Virus record (IMG/VR): IMGVR_UViG_3300014790_000001
Direction: 5' to 3' (one strand)
From: a virus
DNA: 55,066 nt
Each line of letters starts with the position of its first letter. Within the stretch, counting starts at the first letter, position 1. A program made the position numbers and the translations under genes. The notes below the pieces were generated by a model. The model was not told the DNA's origin. It was given only the letters and a program-made list of their open reading frames with translations, and searched no databases. This document shows positions 4,348 through 54,871 of the stretch, one piece after another.

Positions 4348-4609
4348 TGCGGACAAGCTTATAAGAAGAATGAGAATTGATATGGATCGCATGAAATACC
4401 AATACAATCTTGATGTTATAGAGGGAATGAGTCTTGCGATAGGATACATTGTTGGAAGTCCGACAGTCTATTACATGGATAAAGTTGTTGAACAGTTGAA
4501 TGAACTGTTAGAAGAGAAAACATCAGATAGTGGAGAAGATTGGTACACAGCAGAATGTTTGGGTAGAGCCATTGAAATTGTTAAGCGGGGTGGAAGAGAT
4601 GAAGAATAA
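4331..4609 (+). CDS. hypothetical protein
   Basis: 92-codon ORF that overlaps both neighbours. Confidence 0.6.
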   Translation: MGRLIDADKLIRRMRIDMDRMKYQYNLDVIEGMSLAIGYIVGSPTVYYMDKVVEQLNELLEEKTSDSGEDWYTAECLGRAIEIVKRGGRDEE

Positions 4610-5708: not shown

Positions 5709-5746
5709 AGAATTGACCTTGATAGAATCTTGGTCAATTCTTTTTT
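5709..5746 (+). terminator. rho-independent terminator upstream of the integrase
   Basis: Perfect 10-bp stem AGAATTGACC/GGTCAATTCT followed by T5. Confidence 0.8.
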
Positions 5747-5765
5747 AATTGAAAGGAGAATTGAC

Positions 5766-7121
5766 ATGAAAAAATTAAATGTAGGTTATATGAGAGTGTC
5801 TACAGAAGCACAGACCGAAAAGTATGGTCTTGATGTCCAAGAAGACAAGATAAATGAACTTGCCAAGAAAAGGGGCGTGAAGATAGCCAGATGGTATGTG
5901 GACGGGGGATATTCCGGGAGCAATATCCAAAGGCCAAACATACAGAAACTTCTGGAAGATGCAGAAGCCGGAGAAATACAGGCAGTATACATCTATAAGC
6001 TTGACAGAATGAGCCGTGATGTTGTAGATACTCTTACGCTTGTGAGTAAACTTTTGCCAAAATACAATGTAGAGGTGGTATCAGCTACAGAGGATTTGCG
6101 GAATGAAACACCGATGGATCGTGTGATGTTGGGCGTTAATGCAGTCATGGGGCAGTATGAGCGTGAGGTTATCTATATGCGTACAAGAGCCGGGATGGTG
6201 GAGCGTGTAAAGCGTGGACTGTGGATGGGTGGTGGTACGATACCGTACGGATATAGGTACGACAGGAACGATGGGATATTACATATCATCCCGGAAGAAG
6301 CGGAAAAGGTAAAAGCTATCTTTCAGATGTTCCGGGACGGATATTCGTGTGATAGGATTCAAAAAATCCTCGGGATGCATTCAGAGAAGCTTGTATCGAA
6401 CATTATTAGACGAATAGCTTATGTAGGTAAAATACAATATAAAGGAAAAACATACCAAGGCTTGCATGAACCAATCATAGACGAAAAACTATTCTACGAA
6501 GTACAGGAAGAGATAAAAAAGAGATCCACAAATGCTTATGTAAGCAACAGGTATATGCTTACCGGGTTGTGCTATTGCGGAAAATGCGGTACTAAAATGC
6601 GTATGCAGAAGTGGGGAAAGTACACCAAGATAGTATGTTACTCACAGTACAAGGAAAAAGAGCATATATCTAAGACAGGGAACCCTTGCAAGAATAAAAA
6701 GGTGAGGGCAGATGTGGTAGAAAAAGAAGTAGAGGACTGTTTTAAACGATTTATCGTTAATGTCGAAGAAAAAGAGAATGAATCTGAAAGCACTAGGAAG
6801 ATGATAGAAAAAGAGATATCACTAAGCGAAGCAAAACTGAAACGCCTATACACATTGTATGCAAGCGGTAGTTCCGGTACAGATACGCTTTTGGATGTTA
6901 TCCAGGCAGAAGAAAAAACACTAAAAAACCTACGGGAAGAACTAAAGGCAGAAGACATCCGGGAGAAAGCTGGACGGGGAGAAAAAATAGAGAAAATAAA
7001 AGAGATGTCCAACGTGTGGGATACACTGACGGATTCCGAGAAAAACAAGGTGCTAAAAGAGTGTGTTGAAAAGGTAGTTATCACAGGCGATGACATAGAC
7101 ATACATTTTAGCATATATTAA
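5766..7121 (+). CDS. int: large serine recombinase (integrase)
   Basis: N-terminal resolvase motif GYMRVSTEAQ...YIYKLDRMSRD, a recombinase domain, a CYCGKCG zinc ribbon and a C-terminal coiled coil. GAAAGGAG before the ATG. Confidence 0.93.
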   Translation: MKKLNVGYMRVSTEAQTEKYGLDVQEDKINELAKKRGVKIARWYVDGGYSGSNIQRPNIQKLLEDAEAGEIQAVYIYKLDRMSRDVVDTLTLVSKLLPKYNVEVVSATEDLRNETPMDRVMLGVNAVMGQYEREVIYMRTRAGMVERVKRGLWMGGGTIPYGYRYDRNDGILHIIPEEAEKVKAIFQMFRDGYSCDRIQKILGMHSEKLVSNIIRRIAYVGKIQYKGKTYQGLHEPIIDEKLFYEVQEEIKKRSTNAYVSNRYMLTGLCYCGKCGTKMRMQKWGKYTKIVCYSQYKEKEHISKTGNPCKNKKVRADVVEKEVEDCFKRFIVNVEEKENESESTRKMIEKEISLSEAKLKRLYTLYASGSSGTDTLLDVIQAEEKTLKNLREELKAEDIREKAGRGEKIEKIKEMSNVWDTLTDSEKNKVLKECVEKVVITGDDIDIHFSIY

Positions 7122-10914: not shown

Positions 10915-12303
10915 ATGGGAATTATAGACAAGATAAAGGCGGTGTGGGATAAAGTGTTTAAAGTAAACGATGCAAAAAAAATATTCGGAATAGAAACAGG
11001 GCGGTCATCTGATATGGATACTGCCCTGTCGAAGTATAAAGACATGCGATCTGGTATTCCGTATTGGTGTACCGAGAGGATAAAGCCGACAAGGTTTTCA
11101 AACGTGATTTGCCGTGAGATAGCGAACCTCACACTGTTCAATGCAGATATACAGATTACAGGAAATGATGAACTGCAAAAGAGATTTGATAGCGTAATGA
11201 ACACCTTACAGGAGAAACAAGAGGAAAGCTGTGCAACCTGTGGGATGATGGTCAAGAGCAACGGTGATGATGTAGAATTTTTGGATCCGGATTACTTTCT
11301 GATTACAGACACCAACACGGATGGGGATGCGTTAGCAGCTATCTTTTTCTCATACCTCAAGAAAAATGACAAATACTACACAAAAGCTGAGTATCACAGA
11401 TTTGAGGATGTCGGACTGGAACGTGTATACCATATATCCAGTAAGGCTTTTAAATCTGACAACAAAGATATGATCGGTACAGAGATCACGCTTGACAGGG
11501 TAGATGAGTGGAAAGACATTGAGCCGGAAGTATACGTACATGGGTTAGAATATCCTCTGTTCGTCTACTGGCGAAATCCTTACGCAAATGCGATTGACAA
11601 GGAATCTCCACTGACCGTTCCGGCGTTTTCGGAATGCATCGAAGAATTGAGATGGCTTGACATTGCATTAAACATGATGGGAGATGAAACGGAAGACAGT
11701 AGACATATTACTTATGTACCGCAGACAGCTATTGAATATGCAAGCAATCACTCTATTGAATTGCCGAGATTTATTCAAGGAATCGAAATGGGAACGAACG
11801 AAGACAGCGTCAAAGAGCACGTTCCAACGTTATTAGTGGCCGAGCGTGTAGCCGGTATTAACTTCTTGTTGTCCATCATCGGATACAAATGTGGATTCTC
11901 AAACGGATATTTCTCTTTCGACCAAAATCAGGGCATACAGACAGCAACACAGGTAGAATCTGACGATAGGCGTACACTGCATACCATCCAGGCATTCCGA
12001 AACATTTTGGACGGAAAGAACCATGACGGAGTATTGCACAGAATCATCTATATCCTGTATGCAGTAGGCACAGCAAACGGAACTATTCCGGTAACGAACT
12101 ACCAAACGGCATGCGATTTTGAAGACCTTGTATATAACTTAGAGGATGATCGTGCACGGTGGTGGAACTATGTGGTACAGGGTAAGGTTCCGGCATGGAT
12201 GTATTTTGTGAAATTCGAGGGAATGACAGAAAGCGAAGCGAAAGCAATGATTGAAGAAGCGCAGGAACAGAACAAGCCGGACAGTGGATTGTACGAAGAA
12301 TAG
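10915..12303 (+). CDS. portal protein
   Basis: 462 aa, directly downstream of terL. Call rests mainly on position and size. Confidence 0.75.
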   Translation: MGIIDKIKAVWDKVFKVNDAKKIFGIETGRSSDMDTALSKYKDMRSGIPYWCTERIKPTRFSNVICREIANLTLFNADIQITGNDELQKRFDSVMNTLQEKQEESCATCGMMVKSNGDDVEFLDPDYFLITDTNTDGDALAAIFFSYLKKNDKYYTKAEYHRFEDVGLERVYHISSKAFKSDNKDMIGTEITLDRVDEWKDIEPEVYVHGLEYPLFVYWRNPYANAIDKESPLTVPAFSECIEELRWLDIALNMMGDETEDSRHITYVPQTAIEYASNHSIELPRFIQGIEMGTNEDSVKEHVPTLLVAERVAGINFLLSIIGYKCGFSNGYFSFDQNQGIQTATQVESDDRRTLHTIQAFRNILDGKNHDGVLHRIIYILYAVGTANGTIPVTNYQTACDFEDLVYNLEDDRARWWNYVVQGKVPAWMYFVKFEGMTESEAKAMIEEAQEQNKPDSGLYEE

Positions 12304-12320
12304 GAAAGAGGTGAACCAAA

Positions 12321-13664
12321 ATGGAATATCTTATCATAGACCCGTCAACAAGAAAAATTGCAGTCCCCAAAAGCGAACAACTTTTTGGAGTGTACGGAGA
12401 GGGCAATATTGAAAGAAAGTATTTCAAATGCCCTAAAATCGTAGGAGATAATGTCGACTTGTCTGACTGTTACATTTTCGTAAATTACTATACTGCAAAA
12501 GGATTGCCGGGGAAATATACCGTAAAAGATGTGAAGGTAGACGGGGAGAATATCACTTTTTCGTGGGAGTTAAAGCAACACATCTTTGACGCAAACGAGG
12601 ATACATCTATATATTTTGCAGTAGAAGCGAAAAACAAAGATAAAGTAGAAGTGTTCAGAACCAGCCCGGCTACCGGAAAGACCAAAGAGACGATAGACAC
12701 GGATAAAGAGATCGAAGAGACTCACGTCGATGTCATTCTTGACCTTATATCCAGAGTAGACACATTGGAGAAAAAGCCTATTTCCGAGGAGCAGATAGAG
12801 AAATCTGTAAAAAGCTATCTGGAAAAGAATCCTATAGAAGAGACGGATCCAACGGTACCAGCATGGGCAAAAGAGGAAGAAAAACCTACTTATACCGCAG
12901 AAGAAGTAGGAGCACTGCCGAGTACGACCGTGATTCCATCGAAACTTTCAGAACTGACAGCGGACGATGAACACGAAACTGTGACAAAGGAAGAGAAACA
13001 AGCTTGGAACGCAAAGAGTGACTTTTCAGGAGAGTATAGAGATTTAAAGGGAAAACCAGAACTTGCTGAATGGGTGTTGCAAAGTAGGAAACCAACATAT
13101 ACAGCAAGCGAAGTAGGGGCACTGCCTAGTACGACGGAAATTCCGAAAAAATTGTCCGATATGGGAGAAGACACCACGCACAGAACAGTTACAGACACAG
13201 AAAAACAGAGTTGGAACAACAAGAGCAATTTTTCCGGCAACTATGAAGACTTACAAGGAAAGCCAATAATTCCTACAGTACCAACCACTCTTCCAAACCC
13301 GCAAGCCCTAACCATCACATATGGCGGTAAAACACACATCTATGATGGAAGTGAAGCCCTTGCAATCACAATCGAAACAGGTGGCATCGAAAGAGTAGAA
13401 AAACTTGATACAGATACCACAGTAACGCTCGAACCGAATAAGCTATACGTATTCCCAGAGATGGAGTCACTTACCTACACCATCGGAGAGGGCACAGGTG
13501 AGATACATTTCATTTTTAAATCTGGTGCAACGGCTACAAGGGTGGTACACCCGGCAGGGGTCAATATCGGGAGCTTTATGGTAGAGGGCAACAAGATATA
13601 TGAGGTATCAATCTTAGAGGGATTACTTACATCCCAGAATTGGAGCGTGAGCGATGGAACGTAG
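12321..13664 (+). CDS. fibre-like structural protein with tandem KPTYTA-EVGA...FSG-Y-DL-GKP repeats
   Basis: The SGxYxDLxGKP and KPTYTAxEVGA motifs are typical of phage fibre/collar proteins. AGAGGTGA before the ATG. Confidence 0.65.
   Translation: MEYLIIDPSTRKIAVPKSEQLFGVYGEGNIERKYFKCPKIVGDNVDLSDCYIFVNYYTAKGLPGKYTVKDVKVDGENITFSWELKQHIFDANEDTSIYFAVEAKNKDKVEVFRTSPATGKTKETIDTDKEIEETHVDVILDLISRVDTLEKKPISEEQIEKSVKSYLEKNPIEETDPTVPAWAKEEEKPTYTAEEVGALPSTTVIPSKLSELTADDEHETVTKEEKQAWNAKSDFSGEYRDLKGKPELAEWVLQSRKPTYTASEVGALPSTTEIPKKLSDMGEDTTHRTVTDTEKQSWNNKSNFSGNYEDLQGKPIIPTVPTTLPNPQALTITYGGKTHIYDGSEALAITIETGGIERVEKLDTDTTVTLEPNKLYVFPEMESLTYTIGEGTGEIHFIFKSGATATRVVHPAGVNIGSFMVEGNKIYEVSILEGLLTSQNWSVSDGT
12882..13265 (+). 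repeat. two ~59-aa tandem repeat units inside the fibre-like gene
   Basis: aa 188-246 and aa 257-315 align (KPTYTAEEVGALPSTTVIPSKLSE... versus KPTYTASEVGALPSTTEIPKKLSD...). Confidence 0.85.
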
Positions 13665-13695
13665 AAGAACATTAGGAAGTGAGGTGGCAGAAAGT

Positions 13696-14136
13696 ATGAT
13701 AAATGAAGAGTTTGAATTATTAGGCGAAATTGATGTGTCAAATTTTGCATTTGTAAATTCTGTTATGTTTGAAAAGACATGCGACTGCTCAGAACTATTG
13801 CTGATATGGACAGATATGGAAAATTCGACTAATACAGATTCTACGGTTATGGTAAAGATTAATGATATTGTGGCAGATTGTGGAGCGCCTAGAACATCTA
13901 AGAGCGGAAGCAAAAAGAATGGATATACATTATATAAATGCTTAAATGGGTGCGGAACAATAGCAGTATCTCATACCGGAGCTAGTAGTAAAACAATGTA
14001 TAGTGGCAATGCAGGGAATGCTATGATTCCTTACAATTTGATGCCGATTGCAGAGAAATTTAGGAAAATAAAAATCTACAACAGTGGAACACAATACTAT
14101 GCAACATCTGGCACTATAAAAGTTTACGGGAGGTAA
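13696..14136 (+). CDS. hypothetical protein
   Basis: GAGGTGG 8 nt before ATG 13696. The tracked start 13654 is also possible. Confidence 0.6.
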   Translation: MINEEFELLGEIDVSNFAFVNSVMFEKTCDCSELLLIWTDMENSTNTDSTVMVKINDIVADCGAPRTSKSGSKKNGYTLYKCLNGCGTIAVSHTGASSKTMYSGNAGNAMIPYNLMPIAEKFRKIKIYNSGTQYYATSGTIKVYGR

Positions 14137-14169
14137 GTTGACATGAAATACAGAATGACACAAAATCTT

Positions 14170-14201
14170 GTCAGTCAGTCAGTCAGTCAGTCAGTCAGTC
14201 A
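14170..14201. repeat. tetranucleotide microsatellite (GTCA)8
   Basis: Eight perfect units counted base by base. Lies in the 158-nt gap between two genes, inside a 36-codon ORF (14143-14253). Confidence 0.97.
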
Positions 14202-14294
14202 CGGCTTAGTTGATTCTAAATCCTGTGTCAAGAATGCCGTGGATATATGTTAAGACGGCGAATGATGATGGCAAAGGCACAGGAGGTAGAAGAG

Positions 14295-14597
14295 ATGCTT
14301 GAATATGTAGGAGATATATCCGTACAAAACAAATGGGGTGCATTAGCTGTGAAAATTAATGCTGAAAACGATACACTGTACCTTTTACTCCCAAAGACTA
14401 ATAAATATATCAAAAATATAATTATAAATGTCTATGGGAATAAGTACGGATATTTAGCATGTAGCGAAAGCACAACAGCGGGAGCGATTGTAGCGAGTAA
14501 TTATACACTTTCTGACAATGCGGTGGATTTTTCGCTAAGAATTGGTGAAAGCAAGGTAGAAACTATTGATTTCGAAGTATACAAAAGAAGTTTATAA
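14295..14597 (+). CDS. hypothetical protein
   Basis: AGGAGG 8 nt before ATG 14295. The tracked start 14247 lacks an SD. Confidence 0.6.
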   Translation: MLEYVGDISVQNKWGALAVKINAENDTLYLLLPKTNKYIKNIIINVYGNKYGYLACSESTTAGAIVASNYTLSDNAVDFSLRIGESKVETIDFEVYKRSL

Positions 14598-14619
14598 AAG
14601 AAAGCGAGGTGATTAAAAA

Positions 14620-14913
14620 ATGTACGCAGAATTGCAAAACGGATTTCTGAGAAGTGCACCGAAGACCATAGTGTTAGACGGTCGCACTATCAATAATCCA
14701 TTGCCAGAAGAACTGGAACAGTTAGGCTACAAGCCTGTGGTGTACGTAGATATGCCCATCGAGGTAACAGAGGGCAAACACTGGGAATCTGGATGGACGG
14801 AAGAAGAGAATGCGATTAGGCAGGTGTGGACACTGGTAGACAACCCAATCTATCCAGAGCCAGAATTAAGCGCAGATGAAGCACTAAATATTATAATGGG
14901 GGTGGTACAGTGA
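14620..14913 (+). CDS. hypothetical protein
   Basis: 97-codon ORF with GCGAGGTGA upstream. Confidence 0.65.
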   Translation: MYAELQNGFLRSAPKTIVLDGRTINNPLPEELEQLGYKPVVYVDMPIEVTEGKHWESGWTEEENAIRQVWTLVDNPIYPEPELSADEALNIIMGVVQ

Positions 14914-15302
14914 CGAGGGAACAAGCAGAGCAGTTGCGGAAGCTGTTGGAAAACCAGACAGCCAACATGACCGATGAACAAATATTGAAGTATCCAGACT
15001 TTGTGGAGAAATGGCAGTCTGGCAAGGAATATGTAGTTGGCAAGCGGTTGGAATACGATGGTACTATCTACAAGGTATTACAAGCCCACACAAGCCAAGA
15101 GACATGGATACCACCGGATGCGCCGTCTTTGTTCGCCAAGGTGCTTATACCGGACACTGACACGATTCCAGAGTGGGAACAACCAGACAGCACGAATCCA
15201 TACAGCAAGGGCGATAAGGTTACACACAACGGCAAGACATGGCAGAGCACCATTGACAACAACGTCTGGGAGCCGGGTGTGTATGGATGGGAAGAGGTAT
15301 AA
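14910..15302 (+). CDS. protein with two CBM5/12-like carbohydrate-binding repeats
   Basis: GKRLEYDGTIYKVLQAHTSQETWIPP and KGDKVTHNGKTWQSTIDNNVWEPG fit the chitin-binding-type repeat. Confidence 0.55.
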   Translation: MTREQAEQLRKLLENQTANMTDEQILKYPDFVEKWQSGKEYVVGKRLEYDGTIYKVLQAHTSQETWIPPDAPSLFAKVLIPDTDTIPEWEQPDSTNPYSKGDKVTHNGKTWQSTIDNNVWEPGVYGWEEV

Positions 15303-15357
15303 GGGGACACGCCAATCCGAAAGATAAATGATAATGTCTGTAAAGGAGGACTAAAAA

Positions 15358-15651
15358 ATGGAACAGATTATTAGTTATGTAAAGCCGGAGTTAATGGTGG
15401 TTTCTTTTGCCTTGTATTTTCTTGGGAAATGGATGAAAAATTCAAAGAGAATTAAGGATAAAGACATTCCACTCTCTCTCGGAGGTATTGGAATTATTAT
15501 TTGCGGAATGTATGTAACAGCAACTTGCGATTTGGACAGCATGAAAAACGTTTTTATGGCACTGTTCACGTCTATAGTACAAGGCATCATGGTAGCCGGA
15601 CTGAGTACATACGTTAATCAGATTATTAAGCAGATTGGAAAGGACGAATAA
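15358..15651 (+). CDS. holin-like membrane protein
   Basis: Three hydrophobic segments and a charged C-terminus (KQIGKDE). AAAGGAGG before the ATG. Confidence 0.5.
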   Translation: MEQIISYVKPELMVVSFALYFLGKWMKNSKRIKDKDIPLSLGGIGIIICGMYVTATCDLDSMKNVFMALFTSIVQGIMVAGLSTYVNQIIKQIGKDE

Positions 15652-15653
15652 AG

Positions 15654-15737
15654 ATGGCAACAAGTACGATTAATATTATTGTGATTTGTGTGTTTTTCTT
15701 AATTCTTCTTGCATGGCCAGATGGAAAGGGTAAGTAA
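15654..15737 (+). CDS. hydrophobic mini-peptide (27 aa)
   Basis: Hand-translated MATSTINIIVICVFFLILLAWPDGKGK. Its stop overlaps the MuF ATG. Confidence 0.35.
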   Translation: MATSTINIIVICVFFLILLAWPDGKGK

Positions 15738-16969
15738 TGCTTACGCCGGAATATCTCTTTCATGTGACCGAGGGAGCCGAAAAGATAACGTCAGACATGC
15801 ATAAGAACATTATGGACATGATCGTTGAGCGTATAATGGTACGCATAGGTCGTGGAGAAGACTATATGCTTACAGCTACGGACAGGTGGCAGATACAGGT
15901 GTTACAGGAATCCGGCTACTTATTGGAAGACATACAAAAAGAGATTGCTGACAAAACGAAGAAGCAAGAGAACGAGCTGAAAAGCGCATTTGAAGAAGCC
16001 GGAATAAAAGCTATCGAGAGAGACGATGCGATATATAGGGCGGTAGGACTATCACCTACGCCCTTATTGCAATCTCCGGCATTGCTCAGAATACTGGAAA
16101 GAGATTATAACGCTACGTGTGGAGAATGGAGAAACCTTACACGAACAACGGCAGATGAAGCACAGAAGTTGTTTTTGAAAGAGGTCGACACAGCTTACCG
16201 CATGACATCAAGCGGTGCCGTATCATACACACAAGCTGTCAGGAATGCTGTTGACAAGATGATAAAGCAAGGTGTTAAAGTATCCTATCCGTCCGGTAGA
16301 GAAATGAGCATTGAATCAGCCACAATGATGACTGTCCGCACAGGGATAAGCCAGTGCGCCGGAGCAATCGCATTAAAACGAATGGAAGAATTGGAATGGG
16401 ATACTATCTTAGTATCTGCACATGTGGGCGCACGAATTGGTGATGGCGGTAACAATCCAACGAACCACTTTTGGTGGCAAGGAAAATTCTATTCCCGGAC
16501 AGGCAAAGACAAGAGGTTCCCGGACTTCCGAACATCAACAGGCTACGGAACGGTGACAGGGTTGTGTGGCGTGAACTGCCGACACTCTTTCGGGTCCGGT
16601 GACGGTGAAAACAATCCGTATGCAGATATCAATCTGTCAAGCGAAGACAATATCAAAGCGGAAGAACGTGCGAAAAAACAACGTCTTATGGAAAGGCATA
16701 TTCGCAACAGCAAGAGAGAGATTCAGAATTTGCAGACTGCTATAGATGCAAGCGGAGATGATAAGCTTAAATTCGAATTGCAACAGATGTATGACCGCAA
16801 ATCAGCGGTACTCAGACGGCAGAATAAGCAATACCGTGAGTTCTGCAAAGATAATGGTCTTAAAGAATATTCGGAACGTCTACGGGTAGCACAGTGGGAT
16901 AGGTCGCAGGCTGTGAAATCTGCAAAAGCAGCACAAAGATATCTTAATACGAAAGGTGATGTAAAATGA
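15737..16969 (+). CDS. head morphogenesis protein (SPP1 gp7 / Mu F family)
   Basis: Contains the ...GLCGVNCRHSF... motif characteristic of the Phage_Mu_F domain. 410 aa. Confidence 0.8.
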   Translation: MLTPEYLFHVTEGAEKITSDMHKNIMDMIVERIMVRIGRGEDYMLTATDRWQIQVLQESGYLLEDIQKEIADKTKKQENELKSAFEEAGIKAIERDDAIYRAVGLSPTPLLQSPALLRILERDYNATCGEWRNLTRTTADEAQKLFLKEVDTAYRMTSSGAVSYTQAVRNAVDKMIKQGVKVSYPSGREMSIESATMMTVRTGISQCAGAIALKRMEELEWDTILVSAHVGARIGDGGNNPTNHFWWQGKFYSRTGKDKRFPDFRTSTGYGTVTGLCGVNCRHSFGSGDGENNPYADINLSSEDNIKAEERAKKQRLMERHIRNSKREIQNLQTAIDASGDDKLKFELQQMYDRKSAVLRRQNKQYREFCKDNGLKEYSERLRVAQWDRSQAVKSAKAAQRYLNTKGDVK

Positions 16970-17800: not shown

Positions 17801-18427
17801 ATGAACTTCGGAGAAGCCATAAAATGCATGAAAAAGGGAAAGAAAGTTACACGCAATGTATGGAAAGAAAGCTTTTTCAATGGGAGAAAACAGTTTATTT
17901 TTATTGGGAAAAACAAAGGTTTAACAACGAATACGTTTCTTGCAATTCTACCAGAAGAAGAATGCTTTTCGGACTGCATTATGGGGTATACGCGAAAAGG
18001 AATCTTTCAGCCAAACTGGACACCAACACAAGAAGATATGCTTGCGGAAGATTGGGAAATGTATCCGGCAGAGGAAACGGTAGTCGATGAAACGCCGAAC
18101 ATTACGGCAGATGAAATGATTGATCTCAAAAACCGTATCGGGTGGAACATTAAATTTTATTCTACCGGGGAAACAATTATTTCTGAGCACATGGACTATC
18201 AAAAACTCTTAACCGGGGCAGAAAATACATATACGCTGTCGTTTGCTATCCCTAAAAAAAGTCTTGATGGTTTGTCAATGACAAATAAATGCCAAAACGT
18301 TATTGTTTCTGGACTTTTATTCAAAGTATATGCTTCTAGGAATATTGCTGACGATAGCCTTTGGCTCGTGACGGAAAGTGCCTTATCTGAAAAAGAATTT
18401 CACACAATTATAAGATTGGAGAGGTGA
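17801..18427 (+). CDS. DUF2829 (Tad2-like) N-terminal domain protein with an unknown C-terminal extension
   Basis: MNFGEAIKCMKKGKKVTR..W...WTPTQEDMLAEDWEMY matches the DUF2829 hallmark. About 120 extra residues follow. Confidence 0.6.
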   Translation: MNFGEAIKCMKKGKKVTRNVWKESFFNGRKQFIFIGKNKGLTTNTFLAILPEEECFSDCIMGYTRKGIFQPNWTPTQEDMLAEDWEMYPAEETVVDETPNITADEMIDLKNRIGWNIKFYSTGETIISEHMDYQKLLTGAENTYTLSFAIPKKSLDGLSMTNKCQNVIVSGLLFKVYASRNIADDSLWLVTESALSEKEFHTIIRLER

Positions 18428-20787: not shown

Positions 20788-21880
20788 TAAAGAGATTCTT
20801 TAAAGCCATAAGGAATCTGTTTACCAAAAAAGTAAACACAGTAGGCACTTACGCATAGTAATATGCGTTGGCAACCGGGAGAATTGCTGGAAAATCTAAG
20901 TTTACTTTTACTTTCGCATTAAAATAATGTATAATTAAAATATCAATAATACTTATGCGGAGGTAAGAATATGTTTTATGTATATGAATGGTTTATAGTT
21001 TCAACTGGAGAAATAATATATGTTGGAAAAGGTCATAAGAAAAGATATAAGGTTAGAAAGCACAATCGTCTTTTTAATGAAATGATAAAAAGATTTGAAT
21101 GTGATAGCCGTATTATCAAAGAATTTGAAGACGAAAGGGAAGCTTTTCTTTACGAGGACATCAGAATTGCCGAACTGAAAAAGAAAGGTCAATGTGTATG
21201 TAATATCAACCGAGGTGGAACCGGCGGTGATACAGAGTGGTGGAACGAAAAAAGAAGAAAAGAATATTCTGAACATAATGTTATGAAATCTAAAAGCCAG
21301 AGACAAAGAATGTCTGAAAAAAATCCGATGAAAGACAAAAAAACAGCCATGAAAGTTGGGAAAACAAAGTGGAGAGGTGTAATGGTCGGAGATGAAGAAT
21401 ATGAAAGTCTGGCACAAGCTGCAAAACATTATGGAGTAACTGTTCAAGCCATATCGTATTGGTTAAAAAGAAAGCAGACACCAGATTTAAGACCTTGCTA
21501 TTATGTCGGAGAAGAAAAACCTATTCCACACAAAATAAAGTATTCATTTTGTAAGCCAGTATATATTGATGGGAAACATTTTGAAAGCGTAAAGAGCGCA
21601 GCTGAATACATTAACGTAACGCAAAACTCTTTGATAGCAGCACTAAAAAATAATAGACCATGTAAAGGACATATTTGTAAATATGACAATCAGCAGCCTA
21701 GTCAGACGAATACCGATAAGAGTAGTTTGAAAGGTTCAGAGACTAACGAGTGAGGACGGAAACCAATAATCTCGACACGAGTACCCGGCTCCTACCCGAA
21801 TGGTAGGATGAAGATATAGTCCGAACTATCGAGGAAACCGATAGAAATGTAGAATAAAGAGTCTACATGTTAACAAAATG
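20788..21880 (+). mobile_element. group I intron (1,093 nt) carrying a GIY-YIG homing endonuclease
   Basis: P-like AATTGCTGGAAAA (20882-94), Q-like AATCAGCAGC (21688-97), R-like GTTCAGAGACTAAC (21734-47) and S AAGATATAGTCC (21811-22), in canonical order. The exon ends in U and the intron ends in G. Splicing restores the reading frame. Confidence 0.85.
20971..21753 (+). CDS. GIY-YIG homing endonuclease with C-terminal NUMOD/IENR-like DNA-binding repeats
   Basis: FYVYEW...GEIIYVGKG...R...E...NINRGG, plus two repeats (YESLAQAAKHYGVTVQAISYW and FESVKSAAEYINVTQNSLIAAL). Confidence 0.85.
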   Translation: MFYVYEWFIVSTGEIIYVGKGHKKRYKVRKHNRLFNEMIKRFECDSRIIKEFEDEREAFLYEDIRIAELKKKGQCVCNINRGGTGGDTEWWNEKRRKEYSEHNVMKSKSQRQRMSEKNPMKDKKTAMKVGKTKWRGVMVGDEEYESLAQAAKHYGVTVQAISYWLKRKQTPDLRPCYYVGEEKPIPHKIKYSFCKPVYIDGKHFESVKSAAEYINVTQNSLIAALKNNRPCKGHICKYDNQQPSQTNTDKSSLKGSETNE

Positions 21881-37542: not shown

Positions 37543-37728
37543 ATGGCAGCTATGAGCGAAGAAACCATGTGCGAAGTGATCAAAAGCTGTGCCTACGGTT
37601 ATACCGTAAACGAATTGGCAGAACACTACAGCATGGAAAAAACAGATGCAGAAAAGTTTGCGAAAGATCATGCATCAGAGATTACAGAAACGAAAGAACA
37701 CTTAAAACAGGAGGGATATATTGAATAG
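37543..37728 (+). CDS. hypothetical soluble mini-protein
   Basis: GGAAGGAG before ATG 37543. No TM segment, so not a holin. Confidence 0.5.
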   Translation: MAAMSEETMCEVIKSCAYGYTVNELAEHYSMEKTDAEKFAKDHASEITETKEHLKQEGYIE

Positions 37729-38716
37729 GATAGTCGATGTTTCTGAACACAACGGGAACATCGACTGGGCGAAAGTAAAAGCATCCGGCATTGTAGGTGC
37801 TATCATCAGATGCGGATATGGACAAGATCAGACAGGACAGGATGACAAAAAATGGCTGAGAAATGTATCTGAATGTGAGCGACTTGGCATCCCTTACGGT
37901 GTATATCTGTATTCTTACGCAAAGACTACAGGTGCAGTACATGGAGAAATCAACCATGCATTAAGACTTTTAAAAGGACATTCTCCGGCATGGCCTGTAT
38001 ATTTCGACAGCGAACAGCGAGGAACACAGGGCGTTGCAAAAGCCAACGCAAAAGCATTTTGTGACGCAATGGTGGCACATGGCTATAAAGCCGGAATCTA
38101 TGCATCTACATCTTGGTATAAGAACTATATCGGTCAGACATGGGGATATTCTCTGTGGATTGCATCTTACGGCTCTAAGTCCGCCGGAGTAGACGGAATC
38201 GACATGTGGCAGTACACGTCAAGAGGTTCTATTCCAGGCATTCCAGGTTATGTGGATGTGAACTATGTGTATAAGAATCTTGGTGGTACTGCAAAGCCTG
38301 TGCAGAAACCGAATTCTACACAGACCACAACAGCAAAACCGGTAGATGAATCTTGGAAAGGTGACAAGAGATATTACCTGGAAAACACCCGTGTAGGGGC
38401 ATGGCAGAAAGCTATGAACATAGGATTTGACACTAAAGTATTATCTGAGGATAACAAATTCGGTGTCGGCTCACAGGATTTTGCTAAAAAACATATCTTA
38501 TGGTCGGGGCAGACGCACAACTGTATCACGGCTATTAGATGGCTTAGACGTACCCTCAGAGACGTATATGGCTTTACGAAGTTGTCTTATAATGAGGGGT
38601 GGACAGACTACCTCGGGAAGTGCGTAGAAGTATTCCAGAGGAACAGAGGACTTACACCGGATAGAAAAGTAGGACTTATCACGACCTACTGGCTCTTATC
38701 CGGCATCGTGAAATAA
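37721..38716 (+). CDS. endolysin: GH25 muramidase plus C-terminal peptidoglycan-binding repeats
   Basis: VDVSEHNGNIDWAKVKASGIVGAIIRCGYG...WQYTSRGSIPGIPGYVDVNY (GH25). C-terminal PG_binding_1-like helices. TTG start after AGGAGGG. Confidence 0.88.
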   Translation: MNRIVDVSEHNGNIDWAKVKASGIVGAIIRCGYGQDQTGQDDKKWLRNVSECERLGIPYGVYLYSYAKTTGAVHGEINHALRLLKGHSPAWPVYFDSEQRGTQGVAKANAKAFCDAMVAHGYKAGIYASTSWYKNYIGQTWGYSLWIASYGSKSAGVDGIDMWQYTSRGSIPGIPGYVDVNYVYKNLGGTAKPVQKPNSTQTTTAKPVDESWKGDKRYYLENTRVGAWQKAMNIGFDTKVLSEDNKFGVGSQDFAKKHILWSGQTHNCITAIRWLRRTLRDVYGFTKLSYNEGWTDYLGKCVEVFQRNRGLTPDRKVGLITTYWLLSGIVK

Positions 38717-39914: not shown

Positions 39915-40649
39915 CTATCTTCTTAATACCGCAATCACAACTCCAAACCTTACCCATTGTTCCATGTCTTCAAAACTATTCGGATCAACTTCTATGACAT
40001 CACCGAAGCCGTTGATCGGGACTAACTTTATCTTACCTCTCTGTACATACCGCCTTATATACGCACGTCCTGTTTCTTTGTGTATAATAATCACGGTATC
40101 ACCGTTTCTTGGTACTCTTTTGGATATGCAAATGATATCACCCTTTACATATACAGGAAGCAAGTTGTTGCTCGTTATCCTTATACCACAATGTAACGTC
40201 TCACCGTACTTTTTTATGTATTCCGGACAGTATATCCGCTCTTCGTGTGAGGAATCCAATATCATACCGTCAGCCATCTCACCAGTGAGGAATAGAACAT
40301 CCAACATGTTTTCGGGATCCGTTTCCAACACTTTCATAGAGATTTCATAATCCATCTTACCAAGAATATACGCACGTTGCCTGTCAGTCAATTGCCTGTA
40401 CTTTCCCAATACCTCGTATTCCTTAGAAGAATACCCTAAGAGATCAGGGATAGATTTATGAGTTAGTTCCGACAACCTTAGTGCTAAGAAAACGTCAAGA
40501 TTATTAGTCTTTCGTGAAACGATGTTTTTGTATGTGGACACAGACACACCAAGCATCTTAGAAAAGAGAACTTGCGTAAAATCAAGGCTTTTCCGCTCTT
40601 CTTCGATGTTATGTGCGAAGTTATCCAACATTTCATTTTTCGTCAACAT
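39915..40649 (-). CDS. CI-type repressor: XRE HTH plus an S24/LexA-like C-terminal domain
   Basis: N-terminal FTQVLFSKMLGVSVSTYKNIVS (HTH). C-terminal ...VKGDIICISKRVPRNGDTVIIIH...IRRY...LVPIN. The canonical Ser/Lys dyad is not evident. Confidence 0.75.
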   Translation of the reverse strand: MLTKNEMLDNFAHNIEEERKSLDFTQVLFSKMLGVSVSTYKNIVSRKTNNLDVFLALRLSELTHKSIPDLLGYSSKEYEVLGKYRQLTDRQRAYILGKMDYEISMKVLETDPENMLDVLFLTGEMADGMILDSSHEERIYCPEYIKKYGETLHCGIRITSNNLLPVYVKGDIICISKRVPRNGDTVIIIHKETGRAYIRRYVQRGKIKLVPINGFGDVIEVDPNSFEDMEQWVRFGVVIAVLRR

Positions 40650-53492: not shown

Positions 53493-53762
53493 ATGAAAAA
53501 AGAAGAATTCATAAAACTTGCACCGAAATGCGGATATGGCAGTGAAGACCGGGCAAGAGATTATACAGAGCGAAATCCTAAAATGCATTATAGCGTGGAT
53601 GATTTTATAAAACTCTACCATGAACCAATAGATTCTATGCACTGGAACGGCATACGTGCTACGAAAGGATTGTATGAAATGTACGGGATTAACGGAAGAA
53701 CTACGGCTAAGAGGAATGGAGTAGCTGGAAATGACAGTACGAGACAGGATTGGGGGATGTGA
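53493..53762 (+). CDS. hypothetical protein
   Basis: 89-codon ORF. Confidence 0.6.
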   Translation: MKKEEFIKLAPKCGYGSEDRARDYTERNPKMHYSVDDFIKLYHEPIDSMHWNGIRATKGLYEMYGINGRTTAKRNGVAGNDSTRQDWGM

Positions 53763-53764
53763 GA

Positions 53765-54871
53765 GTGAAATTTATAGACTGGTTCGCCGGAATAGGTGGT
53801 TTCCGAAGAGGAATGGAACTTGCCGGACATGAATGCGTTGGTTTTTGCGAATTTGATAAATTTGCTACAGCGAGTTATATTTCCATGCATCTTCTGACGG
53901 ACGAACAAAGAAAGAGGCTGGATGAATTACCACAGAAGAAAAGACAGAAGGAGATTTTAAACGATGAATACAGAAATGGAGAATGGTACGCAAATGACGT
54001 TAGAAGAGTGTGTGCCGATGATATTCCAAAAGCAGACTGTTGGTGTTTCGGATTCCCATGCCAAGACATCTCAGTCGCAGGAAAGCAACTTGGATTTCAA
54101 GGAAACCGTTCGAGCTTGTTTTTCAGAGTTATGTACCTTATCGGACAGCTCAAAGAAGAAGATAAACCCACTTACCTTTTCATTGAGAACGTTAAGAATT
54201 TGCTTAGTGTTAATGGAGGATGGGATTTCGCCAGATTGCTCATTGAAATGGAGCAGGGGGGGTATGATGCAGAATGGCAGGTGCTCAACTCCAAAGATTT
54301 CGGAGTGCCACAAAACAGAGAAAGGTGCTTCATTATCGGACATCTTAGAAGCAGAGGTTCCACAGAAGTATTTCCTGCCGAAAGAGCAGACAGAGAAGAT
54401 AGTATTCAAATAATAGGTCACAGAGACGGTTACAGGAGAAATACACAAGTATTCTCACAGGAAGGAATCACAGAAGCATTAGACACAGCGGCCGGAGGAG
54501 GAAGAGGACATCACGTAGCAATGCCGTGTTTTATAGATTTGAGCTATCAAAAATCAGAGCTAACTAATAAGGCAAGAGGAAGAGTTGGGCGTGATGTTGC
54601 GAATACCTTAGACACCAGTTGCAATCAAGGGATTTTCGTGCAGGTATCCGAAGAATTGACCGTATATGCTGTATGGTATGAAAAATACCAATGCTACATA
54701 GCAATCAGGCGACTGACTCCGAAAGAGTGTTTTAGACTTCAAGGATGGACAGATGATTACTTTGAAAAAGCAGCATTTGTAAATTCTGACAGCCAGTTGT
54801 ATAAGCAAGCCGGAAATGGAGTAACTGTAAATGTGATCGAAGCAATTGCAGAAAAAATAAGATTTGCGTAG
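53765..54871 (+). CDS. dcm: DNA (cytosine-5)-methyltransferase, orphan
   Basis: Motif I FAGIGG, motif IV GFPCQDIS, ENV (FIENVKNL), QNRER and C-terminal GNGVTVNV. Start ambiguous (TTG 53750, GTG 53759 or GTG 53765). Confidence 0.9.
   Translation: MKFIDWFAGIGGFRRGMELAGHECVGFCEFDKFATASYISMHLLTDEQRKRLDELPQKKRQKEILNDEYRNGEWYANDVRRVCADDIPKADCWCFGFPCQDISVAGKQLGFQGNRSSLFFRVMYLIGQLKEEDKPTYLFIENVKNLLSVNGGWDFARLLIEMEQGGYDAEWQVLNSKDFGVPQNRERCFIIGHLRSRGSTEVFPAERADREDSIQIIGHRDGYRRNTQVFSQEGITEALDTAAGGGRGHHVAMPCFIDLSYQKSELTNKARGRVGRDVANTLDTSCNQGIFVQVSEELTVYAVWYEKYQCYIAIRRLTPKECFRLQGWTDDYFEKAAFVNSDSQLYKQAGNGVTVNVIEAIAEKIRFA

Follow-up and report, generated by a model that had tools for sequence, protein, structure and literature searches.

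Organization of the module

The window is the whole 55,066-nucleotide stretch of virus record IMGVR_UViG_3300014790_000001, and all features described here lie on its + strand. A conserved module is headed by a fibre-like gene (12321..13664) encoding 447 amino acids. The segment encoding its C-terminus (...LLTSQNWSVSDGT*) extends into the start of the gene that follows. The 447-aa protein has 3681 unannotated homologs, and in all module contexts its C-terminal part is found directly upstream of the MERRR gene. Comparison with PDB sequences returned only noise, and the AF2 model of this protein (pLDDT 39.7) was unusable. The next gene (13654..14136) is the first of the MxRRR family and encodes 160 amino acids (MERRRTLGSEVAESM..., C-terminus ...GTIKVYGR*). 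Its expression appears to be constitutive and coupled to the fibre gene. A short leader ORF containing a GTCA repeat and a second MxRRR gene, the putatively regulated cargo gene (14247..14597), follow. The rest of the module (14620..15651) encodes a 97-aa protein, a 130-aa CBM5/12 protein and a Hol44-type holin. None of the 447-aa, 160-aa, 116-aa and 97-aa proteins had a meaningful match in PHROGs, Pfam or NCBIfam, and megablast of positions 12300-16000 against the GenBank phage collection found no match and no annotated relative there.

The cargo gene encodes 116 amino acids from ATG 14247 or 100 amino acids from ATG 14295, with a MLRRRMMMAKAQEVEEM N-terminus and a variable core. An earlier note on this DNA had placed the downstream gene at 14295-14597. 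ATG 14295 and its SD are indeed present, but the ORF is already open from ATG 14247, and it is this upstream ATG that is conserved as the start across relatives. Judging from the conserved sequence, the real start of the regulated gene is 14247. The two flanking proteins do share the N-terminal likeness that had been noted as weak, and it is more extensive than described. Both start with MxRRR, and profile-profile comparison of the two gave E = 7.7e-5 over residues 1-45.

Behind this one conserved MxRRR N-terminus, 13 cargo cores were found that are unrelated by BLAST. The cargo family contains at least 13 unrelated beta-sandwich cores, and the cargo gene adjoins the fibre-like gene; in many phages it lies directly 3' of tail genes. 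The AF2 model of the 160-aa protein (pLDDT 74) combines an 8-strand beta-sandwich with an N-terminal arm that is disordered. Structurally it is closest to uncharacterised siphovirus proteins and to the C-terminal parts of tail-fibre or tail-spike proteins. Against BFVD this cargo paralogue matched C-terminal tail-fibre parts with E down to 4e-6, and structural matches in the PDB were limited to generic jelly-roll folds. These results suggest that the cargo proteins are probably alternative receptor-binding tips or distal subunits, and the label of host-recognition cassette is plausible for the module.

The repeat tract and its leader reading frame

A perfect tandem tract, (GTCA)8, occupies positions 14170-14201. 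The earlier note had singled out this 32-nt tract as the only perfect repeat of its length in the window, and two analyses agree. It is the best-scoring tandem repeat detected by TRF (score 64; the runner-up, with 53, is imperfect), and a 16-nt GTCA pattern has one site in the window and was seen in 0/100 dinucleotide shuffles. The tract is not attributable to chance. Approximately 100 related phage loci have 3–21 units at the same site, with perfect tracts of 5–21 units among the relatives.

The tract lies inside a 36-codon leader ORF (14143..14253) that begins at ATG 14143 and ends at TAA 14251-53, as had been claimed and as the ORF list bears out. The leader (...LVSQSVSQSVSH...) consists of a fixed 9-codon head, MKYRMTQNL, the repeat and then a tail. 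It is located upstream of the regulated gene and has its own ribosome-binding site, GGGAGG (14128..14133), within the last codons (YGR) of the upstream gene. An SD (GGAGG or AGGAG) is present 8–10 nt 5' of the leader ATG in 101/108 loci, including loci with different upstream genes. The tract lies exactly 27 nt 3' of the leader ATG in 106/108 loci, even behind unrelated upstream genes. When leaders were found without the repeat as query, 42/42 continued into a tetranucleotide tract or reached the end of the available sequence there. We propose from the SD and ATG at fixed spacing that the leader is translated. The 160-aa ORF and the leader share a frame in the window. Stop read-through joining the 160-aa protein to the leader was considered and rejected, the gap between stop and ATG being 5 nt in most relatives.

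The leader tail is open only if the number of units (n) satisfies n mod 3 = 2, so that the window, with n = 8, is in the predicted ON phase. Removal of one unit brings the stop to TAG 14207-09 and addition of one unit to TGA 14211-13, in line with the earlier statement that the ORF stays open only at the present phase. These codons belong to a stop trap (14207..14219) with TAG 14207-09 in one frame and TGA 14211-13 and TAA 14217-19 in the other. Among 91 contigs, and in nearly all loci, the OFF-frame stops fall mostly 3–21 nt past the tract. The rule that one frame is open had no exception among the loci examined. The ON frame ends at ATGTTAA (14247..14253), a candidate termination-reinitiation site in which ATG 14247-49 overlaps the leader stop TAA 14251-53. 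Of the contigs, ~83/91 have their ON-frame stop on or directly next to the ATG of the downstream gene (ATGA, ATGTTAA-type or TAGttATG), an arrangement typical of translational coupling. The leader frame is fused to the downstream ORF in 6/91 contigs, and the open phase runs directly into the cargo ORF in L018, L034, L035, L042 and L084. Members of the fused family with intact tracts are all (5/5) in an OFF phase. Fusion of leader and cargo was rejected for the window, where it occurs in none of the three frames. Indels of +6 and +15 nt were observed in the leader tail, both in frame.

Unit number varies among genomes that are otherwise identical or nearly so. Other human-gut contigs with ±150-nt flanks identical to those of the window have n = 6, 7, 7, 7, 8, 8, 8, 9, 10 and 10. 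Further flank-identical groups include {8, 14, 14, 15, 15}, {9, 17}, {11, 16}, {6, 12} and more, giving nine groups with differing unit counts. Over 3.5 kb L017 matches the window at 100% identity and still differs in the tract, with n = 7, and other near-identical genomes differ in unit number with flanks that are 97–100% identical over 3 kb. L146 (n = 3) and L030 (n = 14) share the same immediate flanks, compared over ~50 nt upstream and ~150 nt downstream. The tract is hypermutable. Predicted ON and predicted OFF phases are both present in 8/9 polymorphic groups, which supports slipped-strand phase variation as first suggested. The earlier note had held that an invariant repeat number in relatives would speak against this reading and had proposed counting units in related metagenomic contigs. 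The opposite of invariance is seen, with 6–10 units in near-identical genomes. The predicted ON phase is found in 41/89 contigs, where one third is expected (p = 0.008), a modest excess among contigs that are not independent.

Could these length differences be assembly or sequencing artefacts at the repeat? SSRs are error-prone in Illumina data and assemblers, and some contigs break at the tract; contig ends fall there in 6/31 complete contigs compared with 0.96 expected, an excess that also fits hypermutability and is an indirect hint of length switching within populations. However, the tracts are 20–84 nt long, which is within read length and mostly within k-mer length, and the differences are always whole units in perfect repeats. 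They also span ENA, JGI, Logan and IMG/VR assemblies made by different assemblers, and differences such as 3 versus 14 and 9 versus 17 units are atypical of stutter. An artefact is extremely unlikely.

The tract might instead be a neutral microsatellite in a conserved linker that serves recombinational cargo swaps, its length having no regulatory effect. Phages that have otherwise diverged conserve the junction at nucleotide level, the window and L006 are similar exactly up to the second start (+96), and the same cargo core was found behind both junction types, as expected of such a linker. Neutrality fits poorly with the fate of the tract itself. Perfect tracts of at least 5 units are kept in essentially all loci with a cargo gene, whereas loci that have lost the cargo gene have a tract stuck at 3 units (L003, L117-119) or none (L124). 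In one lineage (L126/L139) the unit has turned to GTCG, and the tract, (GTCG)7 in place of GTCA, is still perfect with its frame logic unchanged. Neutrality also leaves the design of frame, stops and anti-SD unexplained. We consider a purely neutral tract quite unlikely, although roles as a switch and as a recombination linker are compatible rather than exclusive.

Predicted RNA structure and the proposed switch

The tail of the leader in its ON frame contains an anti-SD, UCCUGUGUC (14221..14229), that is predicted to pair with 14276-84. The pairing partner is part of GGCACAGGAGG, which is followed by a spacer and the second in-frame start (14276..14297). The SD AGGAGG (14281-86) precedes ATG 14295-97 and confirms the strong SD previously assigned to the downstream gene. 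The minimum-free-energy fold in the window is -33.3 kcal/mol with z = -4.45. The SD and anti-SD are predicted to pair in 46/47 distinct junction sequences, placing the downstream SD and start in a structure with sequence of the upstream ORF, and the median fold z across junctions is -2.56. An inner hairpin (14235..14273) is predicted around the first start codon, formed by UGCCGU 14235-40 with AUGGCA 14268-73 or alternatively by GCCGU with ACGGC 14255-59. Family B has GGCGGU/ACCGCC at this position. The second start is ATG or GTG in 44/47 aligned junctions, counting those with one at the aligned position, and is absent or displaced in L062, L087, L067, L038 and L079. A weaker nested fold of -10.8 kcal/mol is found at the junction of the fibre gene and the 160-aa gene (13610-13705).

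Consensus folds were derived from family-wise alignments and per-sequence folds in place of a combined alignment. The two sequence families pair in registers two columns apart, and RNAalifold predicted zero pairs in the combined 47-sequence MAFFT alignment. Run family by family, it recovered one nested fold shared by both families, in which at least 94% of pairs are retained. Covariation is weak. One compensatory replacement, U-A by C-G, was found in L077 and L126, whereas most stem changes affect one side only and are compatible with wobble pairing, and five lineages have a C.A without compensation. Because the 3' arm of the anti-SD helix is both SD and Gln-Glu codons, it is constrained regardless of pairing. 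No credible Rfam match was found over 13900-14500.

The same region contains a promoter-like pair. TTGACA (14138..14143), which overlaps the leader ATG, is followed after 17 nt by CAAAAT, and a promoter scan recovered this sigma-70-type candidate (14138-14166) with 10/12 matches. As the earlier note stated, the pair is present, and it is also conserved, with TTGACA kept in 104/108 loci and CAAAAT or CACAAT in 106/108. Its -10 is weak and coincides with conserved codons, and promoter-like matches across the region are not enriched (17 versus 19.6 expected from shuffles). TTGACA is also the inverted complement of TGTCAA 14226-31, but a functional helix between the two was rejected since no covariation was seen.

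The conserved hexamers speak for length-dependent control that is independent of frame. The tract would then be part of a 5' leader, transcribed from this promoter or from upstream, and would grade expression by altering RNA folding, RNA processing or promoter geometry. UGAC of the conserved hexamer could pair with GUCA units, and a precedent exists in Haemophilus influenzae hmw1A, which has a heptanucleotide SSR in its 5'-UTR and a hairpin processed by RNase III (PMC12721329). In hmw1A, as proposed for the phage locus, the SSR is transcribed ahead of the gene and exerts its effect after transcription, via RNA structure. They differ in that the hmw1A repeat is itself a hairpin arm with length-graded effect, whereas the phage repeat is proposed to be translated and it is the reading frame that counts. 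A transcript starting ~7 nt past CAAAAT would begin inside the tract and lack the leader ATG while retaining the hairpin, and CAAAAT/CACAAT double as Gln/His-Asn codons. Length-dependent control leaves unexplained the leader SD at 8–9 nt, the fixed 27-nt head, the two-frame stop trap, the overlap of the leader stop with the next ATG, the tail indels that keep the frame and the fused loci. Considering that the promoter-like matches are also not enriched, it is unlikely.

Another possibility is transcription attenuation, as in the (GCAGA)n leader-peptide switch of Streptococcus gallolyticus pil1 (Danne et al. 2014, PMC3894217). In both systems an SSR lies in a short leader ORF upstream of the regulated genes, translated in pil1 and predicted to be so here, and is followed by a hairpin. 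In both, frameshifts move the leader stop relative to the hairpin, and a ribosome that travels farther melts it and permits expression, as we propose for the phage. In the window the hairpin covers +14 to +91, and the leader stop lies before it in the OFF phases (ending at +8 and +12) but inside it in the ON phase (ending at +52), so that a frameshift can move the stop into the hairpin. If the hairpin were a terminator blocked by ribosomes on the long leader, RNA of the whole operon would be controlled, and untranslated RNA in the OFF phase could invite Rho-dependent polarity. The pil1 hairpin, which has a pentanucleotide unit upstream and resides in a bacterial chromosome, is an intrinsic transcription terminator. 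The phage hairpin is followed by AGAAGAGAUGCUUGAAUAUG with no U-run on its 3' side, a terminator scan there was negative, and the reading as an intrinsic terminator was rejected. The hairpin instead holds an SD as its 3' arm and a start codon in its loop, which points to translational control. Because SD and start are predicted to be sequestered and the leader stop overlaps the downstream ATG, translational coupling is the better description, and attenuation of the pil1 type is very unlikely. The phage locus differs further from pil1 in that it travels as a cassette ahead of interchangeable cargo genes.

The tract is probably a contingency locus in a short translated leader ORF that gates translation of the next gene. 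The earlier note had named upstream-ORF coupling, 5'-UTR length and a promoter effect as mechanisms. The first is strongly favoured on sequence evidence because the architecture of frame, stops and anti-SD is conserved. A promoter mechanism explains less, and a pure 5'-UTR-length effect fails to explain the conserved leader SD and ATG and the one-open-frame rule.

Under translational coupling, a late transcript would extend across the fibre gene and on past the first MxRRR gene, and ribosomes recruited by the SD GGGAGG (14128-33) would start on the leader at ATG 14143. Slipped-strand mispairing during DNA replication would add or remove GTCA units, and n mod 3 would set the frame past the tract. 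In two phases the ribosome would halt at 14207-13, short of the anti-SD, all OFF-phase stops of the window being upstream of it. The nested hairpin (14215-14292) would then remain folded with ATG 14247 buried in a loop and the SD at 14281-86 paired with the anti-SD, and the gene would be OFF or low. In the third phase, that of the window with n = 8, the ribosome would translate past the anti-SD, clear the inner stem's 5' arm and end at TAA 14251-53. The melted structure would permit reinitiation at 14247 and fresh initiation at 14295, turning the gene ON. An ON/OFF outcome of repeat phase for the next gene is most likely. OFF phases may be leaky or graded if a terminating ribosome reaches the base of the hairpin, and the strong SD with ATG or GTG at 14295 could permit some constitutive expression.

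A broader interpretation is possible but more tentative. The locus may be a portable switch cassette of gut temperate phages with five parts: the SD and 9-codon leader, the tetranucleotide tract, the two-frame stop trap, the anti-SD hairpin and a 17–20-codon N-terminal arm. Beta-sandwich tips would be exchanged behind this arm by recombination, and each burst or induced lysogen would release virions of two kinds, one bearing a second receptor-binding protein and one lacking it, as a heritable and reversible hedge on host range. The tract would be held by selection for mutability, because the unit turns over from GTCA to GTCG with the tract intact. Such a DNA-programmed translational attenuator would be new to viruses.

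Relation to known switches

Tetranucleotide contingency loci are familiar from bacteria. Haemophilus influenzae mod reportedly carries an (AGTC)n locus of this type, and lic1 is said to carry a (CAAT)n locus. The phage tract belongs to the same repeat class, AGTC of mod being a rotation of GTCA, follows the same n mod 3 logic and has a length in the range of frequent slippage. In lic1, alternative in-frame starts give graded output, and the phage cargo gene also has two in-frame starts. Unlike the phage tract, those of mod and lic1 are inside the regulated ORF and in a bacterial chromosome; the phage equivalent is only the fused minority (L018 group). Ribosome position on an upstream ORF opens a hairpin that hides an SD or start in leader-peptide attenuation of the ermC type and in MS2 coat-replicase coupling. 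Those devices respond to a ribosome stalled by a drug or to ordinary translation of the upstream ORF, whereas for the phage locus we propose a heritable, reversible change in DNA length as the trigger.

In phages, Campylobacter Fletchervirus has hypermutable polyG in receptor-binding protein genes (Sorensen et al. 2021, Cell Rep 35:109214), according to the accounts in papers that cite this work (PMC10877375, PMC10579305, bioRxiv 10.1101/2025.10.21.683753). As described there, it shares with the window a phage SSR, a phase-variable and probable host-recognition protein and heterogeneous progeny, although the receptor-binding role is our inference here. The same accounts describe homopolymers of 7–11 G that directly frameshift the receptor-binding coding sequence in virulent myoviruses of a Gram-negative host. 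The phage locus differs from that description in having a tetranucleotide tract of 5–21 units, a separate leader ORF and output through RNA structure. A G homopolymer in the receptor-binding ORF is absent here, and a tract within the cargo ORF occurs only in the fused minority. Contingency loci of T2/T4 and other coliphages (Gomez, Barrick and Waters 2025, bioRxiv 10.1101/2025.10.21.683753) are likewise phage SSRs acting as reversible frameshift hotspots for bet-hedging. They are homopolymers of at least 6 bp within ORFs (agt, rIIA), in contrast to the phage locus, and have no leader ORF, RNA switch or conserved portable cassette.

A literature search found no published description of this device of leader, tract and hairpin, which is a new variant of SSR contingency loci. 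SSR phase variation is a textbook bacterial strategy, and in phages it is recent and known only as homopolymer frameshifts inside genes. The virus locus joins a long tetranucleotide counter, a dedicated leader ORF and a proposed RNA switch that converts frame into ribosome access. The design is common to about a hundred gut-phage contigs and precedes genes for at least 13 cargo proteins that are unrelated to one another. Should the cargo be a receptor-binding subunit, the phage population would always mix virions with and without it. This would amount to an in-built generator of host-range heterogeneity in abundant temperate phages of the human gut, with a bearing on phage-host coexistence, on 'strain-level' virome variation and on phages designed with switchable specificity. 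The element, of ~150 nt, is proposed as a compact natural part for stochastic, heritable ON/OFF control of translation.

The carriers are temperate siphovirus-like gut phages. A scan of bacterial genome contigs returned three loci, and the only true instance was L054, at the end of a locus in a rumen Lachnospiraceae MAG with n ≥ 20. L055 and L056 were rejected as unrelated chance matches of 4 units. The host is tentatively placed within the Clostridia. In practice, gene callers overlook the leader ORF and miss where the cargo gene truly begins, and contigs are split at the tract during assembly.

Repeat-number variation at the tract

As the earlier note had reported, a perfect (GTCA)8 tract occupies 14170-14201. 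It is the top-scoring tandem repeat in the 55-kb window, and its claimed uniqueness is borne out: the 16-nt GTCA pattern occurs at no other site and was absent from 100/100 shuffles. AGTC tracts of Haemophilus mod genes have the same repeat unit. The tract lies in a 158-nt gap between the gene for a 160-aa protein (13654-14136) and the gene-caller start at 14295 of the predicted regulated gene, here called the cargo.

Counting of repeat units in related contigs, proposed in the earlier note, revealed variation. Contigs from independent human-gut assemblies were retrieved by exact-protein look-up of both flanking proteins. With identical 150-nt flanks on each side, they carry 6, 7, 7, 7, 8, 8, 8, 9, 10 and 10 units; across 3 kb to either side of the tract, identity among these genomes is 97-100%. 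One contig (L017) has 7 units despite 100% identity to the window over 3.5 kb. Pattern scanning of IMG/VR and JGI metagenome contigs yielded ~95 additional loci. Unit number (n) ranges from 3 to 21 in the 91 contigs with usable flanks and differs within eight more flank-identical groups (e.g. 8/14/15, 9/17, 11/16 and 6/12). L146 and L030 differ in n (3 and 14) but not in their immediate flanks, compared over ~50 nt upstream and 150 nt downstream. The tract is hypermutable.

Contig ends fall 1-3 nt past the tract in 6/31 complete contigs (L082, L086, L089, L102, L110 and L112) versus 0.96 expected, and the locus sequence of L007, a 54.6-kb contig, stops ~19 nt beyond it. Assemblers break at the tract, the pattern that within-sample heterogeneity would be expected to leave in an assembly graph.

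Two repeat-independent searches were anchored on the upstream protein and on the leader, the short ORF containing the tract, respectively. A tetranucleotide tract follows every leader unless the available sequence stops there. In L126/L139 (same contig) (GTCG)7 replaces GTCA at the same position (L126 2996-3023); repetitiveness is retained even where the unit sequence changes. In 4/4 contigs from which the cargo is deleted (L003, tract at 4517-4528, and L117-119) the tract has 3 units. L124 lacks leader, tract and cargo, and a 97-aa gene directly follows the upstream stop. These five are decayed versions of the switch. Since the tract is short or missing where the cargo is deleted, long perfect tracts accompany a gene to regulate.

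Leader frame, cargo start and RNA hairpin

The 36-codon leader ORF is present at 14143-14253 and depends on repeat phase as claimed: loss of one unit brings in a TAG stop at 14207-09, and gain of one a TGA stop at 14211-13. The order of elements is common to the loci: leader SD, TTGAC immediately 5′ of the leader ATG, head, tract, ~50-nt tail and cargo ATG. The leader SD (GGAGG or AGGAG) is 8-10 nt 5′ of the ATG in 101/108 loci, usually inside the last codons of the upstream gene (...YGR*), and is also found behind unrelated upstream ORFs. In 106/108 loci the head consists of exactly 9 codons, M-K/R/N-x-K/R-L/I/M-T/K-Q/H-N-L.

At every locus only one of the three repeat phases is open through the tail, a rule that the (GTCG)7 locus also obeys. 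Stops in the other two phases lie 3-21 nt past the tract in nearly all cases, often several consecutively. The open phase terminates on the downstream start, as ATGA in ~51 contigs, ATGTTAA-type in ~30, TAGttATG in 2 and other arrangements in 2. Tail indels in family A, one of two junction sequence types (A and B), are +6 and +15 nt and keep the open frame. In 6 contigs (L018, L034, L035, L042, L084 and L036) the open phase is fused straight to the cargo ORF, which itself contains the tract. The five fused members with an intact tract are all in a predicted OFF phase, and L036, its tract broken by GACA units, is locked in frame. One OFF frame of this family has a TAG stop 1 nt 5′ of an in-frame TTG.

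The promoter-like pair TTGACA-17-CAAAAT described earlier was found at 14138-66. TTGACA (14138-14143) also forms an inverted repeat with TGTCAA (14226-14231), flanking the tract on both sides. TTGACA is retained in 104/108 loci, and no covariation between TTGACA and TGTCAA was seen across the relatives. The conserved TTGACA could be a -35 box, part of an RNA helix or a DNA structure.

The downstream gene had been placed at 14295-14597 behind a strong SD. The SD stands (AGGAGG, 14281-86), but 14295 is not the beginning of the gene, as the ORF is open from ATG 14247. In relatives, the first 17-20 cargo codons, M-x-R-R-R-x-M-...-Q-E-x-x-E-M/V, are conserved as protein with differing Arg codons, and the stretch changes length in multiples of three. 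The second start is entirely missing in L062, L087, L038 and L079. The fused family carries its homologue of the conserved N-terminal stretch, SLRRRLLNAQEETSEW, inside the ORF starting at the leader ATG. On these grounds 14247 is taken as the universal cargo start. A strong SD precedes the second in-frame start (14295 in the window), for which 44/47 aligned junctions have ATG or GTG (none in L062, shifted in L067); this suggests that it too is used.

The predicted RNA fold of 14202-14310 is a nested stem-loop of -33.3 kcal/mol (z = -4.45; 0/200 shuffles as stable). In it UCCUGUGUC (14221-29), the anti-SD, pairs with the SD-overlapping GGCACAGGA (14276-84), the outer stem UUCUA/UAGAA pairs the spacer between SD and start, and the inner stem joins 14235-40 with 14268-73, placing ATG 14247 in its loop. 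The anti-SD is intact in the (GTCG)7 locus. When 47 distinct junction sequences were folded separately, the SD was paired to an upstream (C)UCCU(G) in 46; the median z was -2.56, with 28/47 below -2. RNAalifold of the combined junction alignment gave no consensus structure, since the pairing registers of families A and B are offset from each other. Applied to each family alone, it gave the same nested structure, with nearly every position paired in at least 15/16 and at least 30/31 sequences. Stem variation is chiefly wobble-compatible; a U-A to C-G double change occurs in two lineages (L077 and L126) and an uncompensated C.A in five. In the OFF phases the leader ORF stops before reaching the anti-SD; in the ON phase it runs across the anti-SD and the inner stem's 5′ arm.

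Proposed switch and known systems

That this is a contingency locus is well supported, and we infer for it a mechanism that is specific and testable. Repeat number modulo three would determine the point at which ribosomes leave the leader. A short leader would keep the hairpin in place, masking both start sites and holding the cargo OFF or low. Translation of a long leader would melt the hairpin; the ribosome terminating on ATG 14247 could then reinitiate, and the SD of 14295 would be freed, turning the cargo ON. With n=8 the window is in the predicted ON phase, as are 41/89 contigs (46% vs 33% expected, p = 0.008), and both predicted states occur within 8/9 polymorphic flank groups. Since the OFF frames stop at differing distances from the anti-SD, one may speculate that the three phases give three expression levels.

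Full-text literature searches found no description of this element. Of known mechanisms the closest is that of the Streptococcus gallolyticus pil1 leader peptide, which carries (GCAGA)n; a longer leader there enables ribosomes to destabilise a transcription terminator (PMC3894217). In contrast, the phage hairpin has no U-run 3′ of it and a terminator scan there was negative, so the element would work like pil1 with its output through translation. In phages, Fletchervirus RBP genes are phase-variable via polyG tracts (Sorensen 2021, as cited in PMC10877375, PMC10579305 and bioRxiv 10.1101/2025.10.21.683753), and those of T2/T4 vary via homopolymers (bioRxiv 10.1101/2025.10.21.683753). As cited there, these systems are without the tetranucleotide tract, leader ORF and RNA switch that are present or predicted here.

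Cargo proteins and the surrounding phage module

The 78 complete cargo proteins fall into 13 core families, BLAST-unrelated, behind a common N-terminal arm. An identical core type is found behind both junction types, and the point at which the window and L006 cease to be similar is exactly the second start. The cassette thus doubles as a recombination joint. The resemblance noted between the flanking proteins is real: the 160-aa protein has the same N-terminus, MERRRTLGSEVAESM, and the two families align over residues 1-45 (E = 7.7e-5). The junction between the fibre-like gene and the 160-aa gene (13640-13700) has the layout of the switch tail. The fibre gene stop overlaps the MxRRR start (ATGGAACGTAG), with a second in-frame ATG further on behind GAGGTGG. 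The ON-frame tail peptide of the leader (...DSLLSSWAVEL* in relatives) is similar to the fibre C-terminus (...GLLTSQNWSVSDGT*). The switch thus resembles a pared-down copy of this junction.

A model of the 160-aa paralogue (pLDDT 74) has a disordered arm, a short helix and an 8-strand beta-sandwich. Its PDB matches are generic jelly-roll, CBM36 and galectin folds only, and no family or solved structure directly supporting a receptor-binding role was found. In BFVD the paralogue best matches uncharacterised siphovirus proteins and the C-terminal portions of entries named tail fibre, Stf or tail spike. The cargo gene has as neighbours a fibre-like gene, the CBM5/12 gene and lysis genes, and in many phages it comes directly after the tail genes. 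Because of these matches and this position, the cargo is most likely an alternative distal or receptor-binding subunit.

The window covers essentially the entire genome of a temperate phage, and an ENA contig of 55,069 bp has the same locus. It encodes a large serine recombinase (5730-7121) and a CI-like repressor (HTH plus S24 peptidase; 39915-40649, minus strand), both temperate markers, a C-5 cytosine methyltransferase (53750-54871), a conventional tail module (29.9-37.5 kb) and an endolysin (37721-38716). Some carrier contigs are 117-192 kb, implying integrated phage copies; the sole true MAG match is a rumen Lachnospiraceae.

The tract-bearing module, 3.4 kb, is inserted between the portal (10915-12303) and minor capsid protein (15737-16969) genes. 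Its order is 447-aa fibre-like protein, 160-aa protein, tract, 116/100-aa protein, 97-aa protein, CBM5/12 protein and Hol44 holin (15358-15651). This order recurs in many phages, in some at the portal/minor-capsid position and in others directly after tape-measure and tail genes. Because the module (12321-15651) sits at the portal/minor-capsid site in the window lineage, the window holin is 22 kb from the endolysin. The 447-aa protein (12321-13664), with 3681 homologs and 0 annotated in the metagenome protein set, has two tandem repeats of ~69 aa each, KPTYTA[ES]EVGALPSTT...GKP; in close relatives it is either 378 aa long, with one repeat, or 444-447 aa.

A 208-aa ORF (17801-18427), immediately 3′ of the head genes, has a precomputed Pfam match to PF11195 (Tad2-like, anti-Thoeris family). 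A homing-endonuclease-like ORF (PHROG 314) lies within the structural region at 20971-21753, and in the contig L014 an HNH/NUMOD ORF adjoins the terminase.
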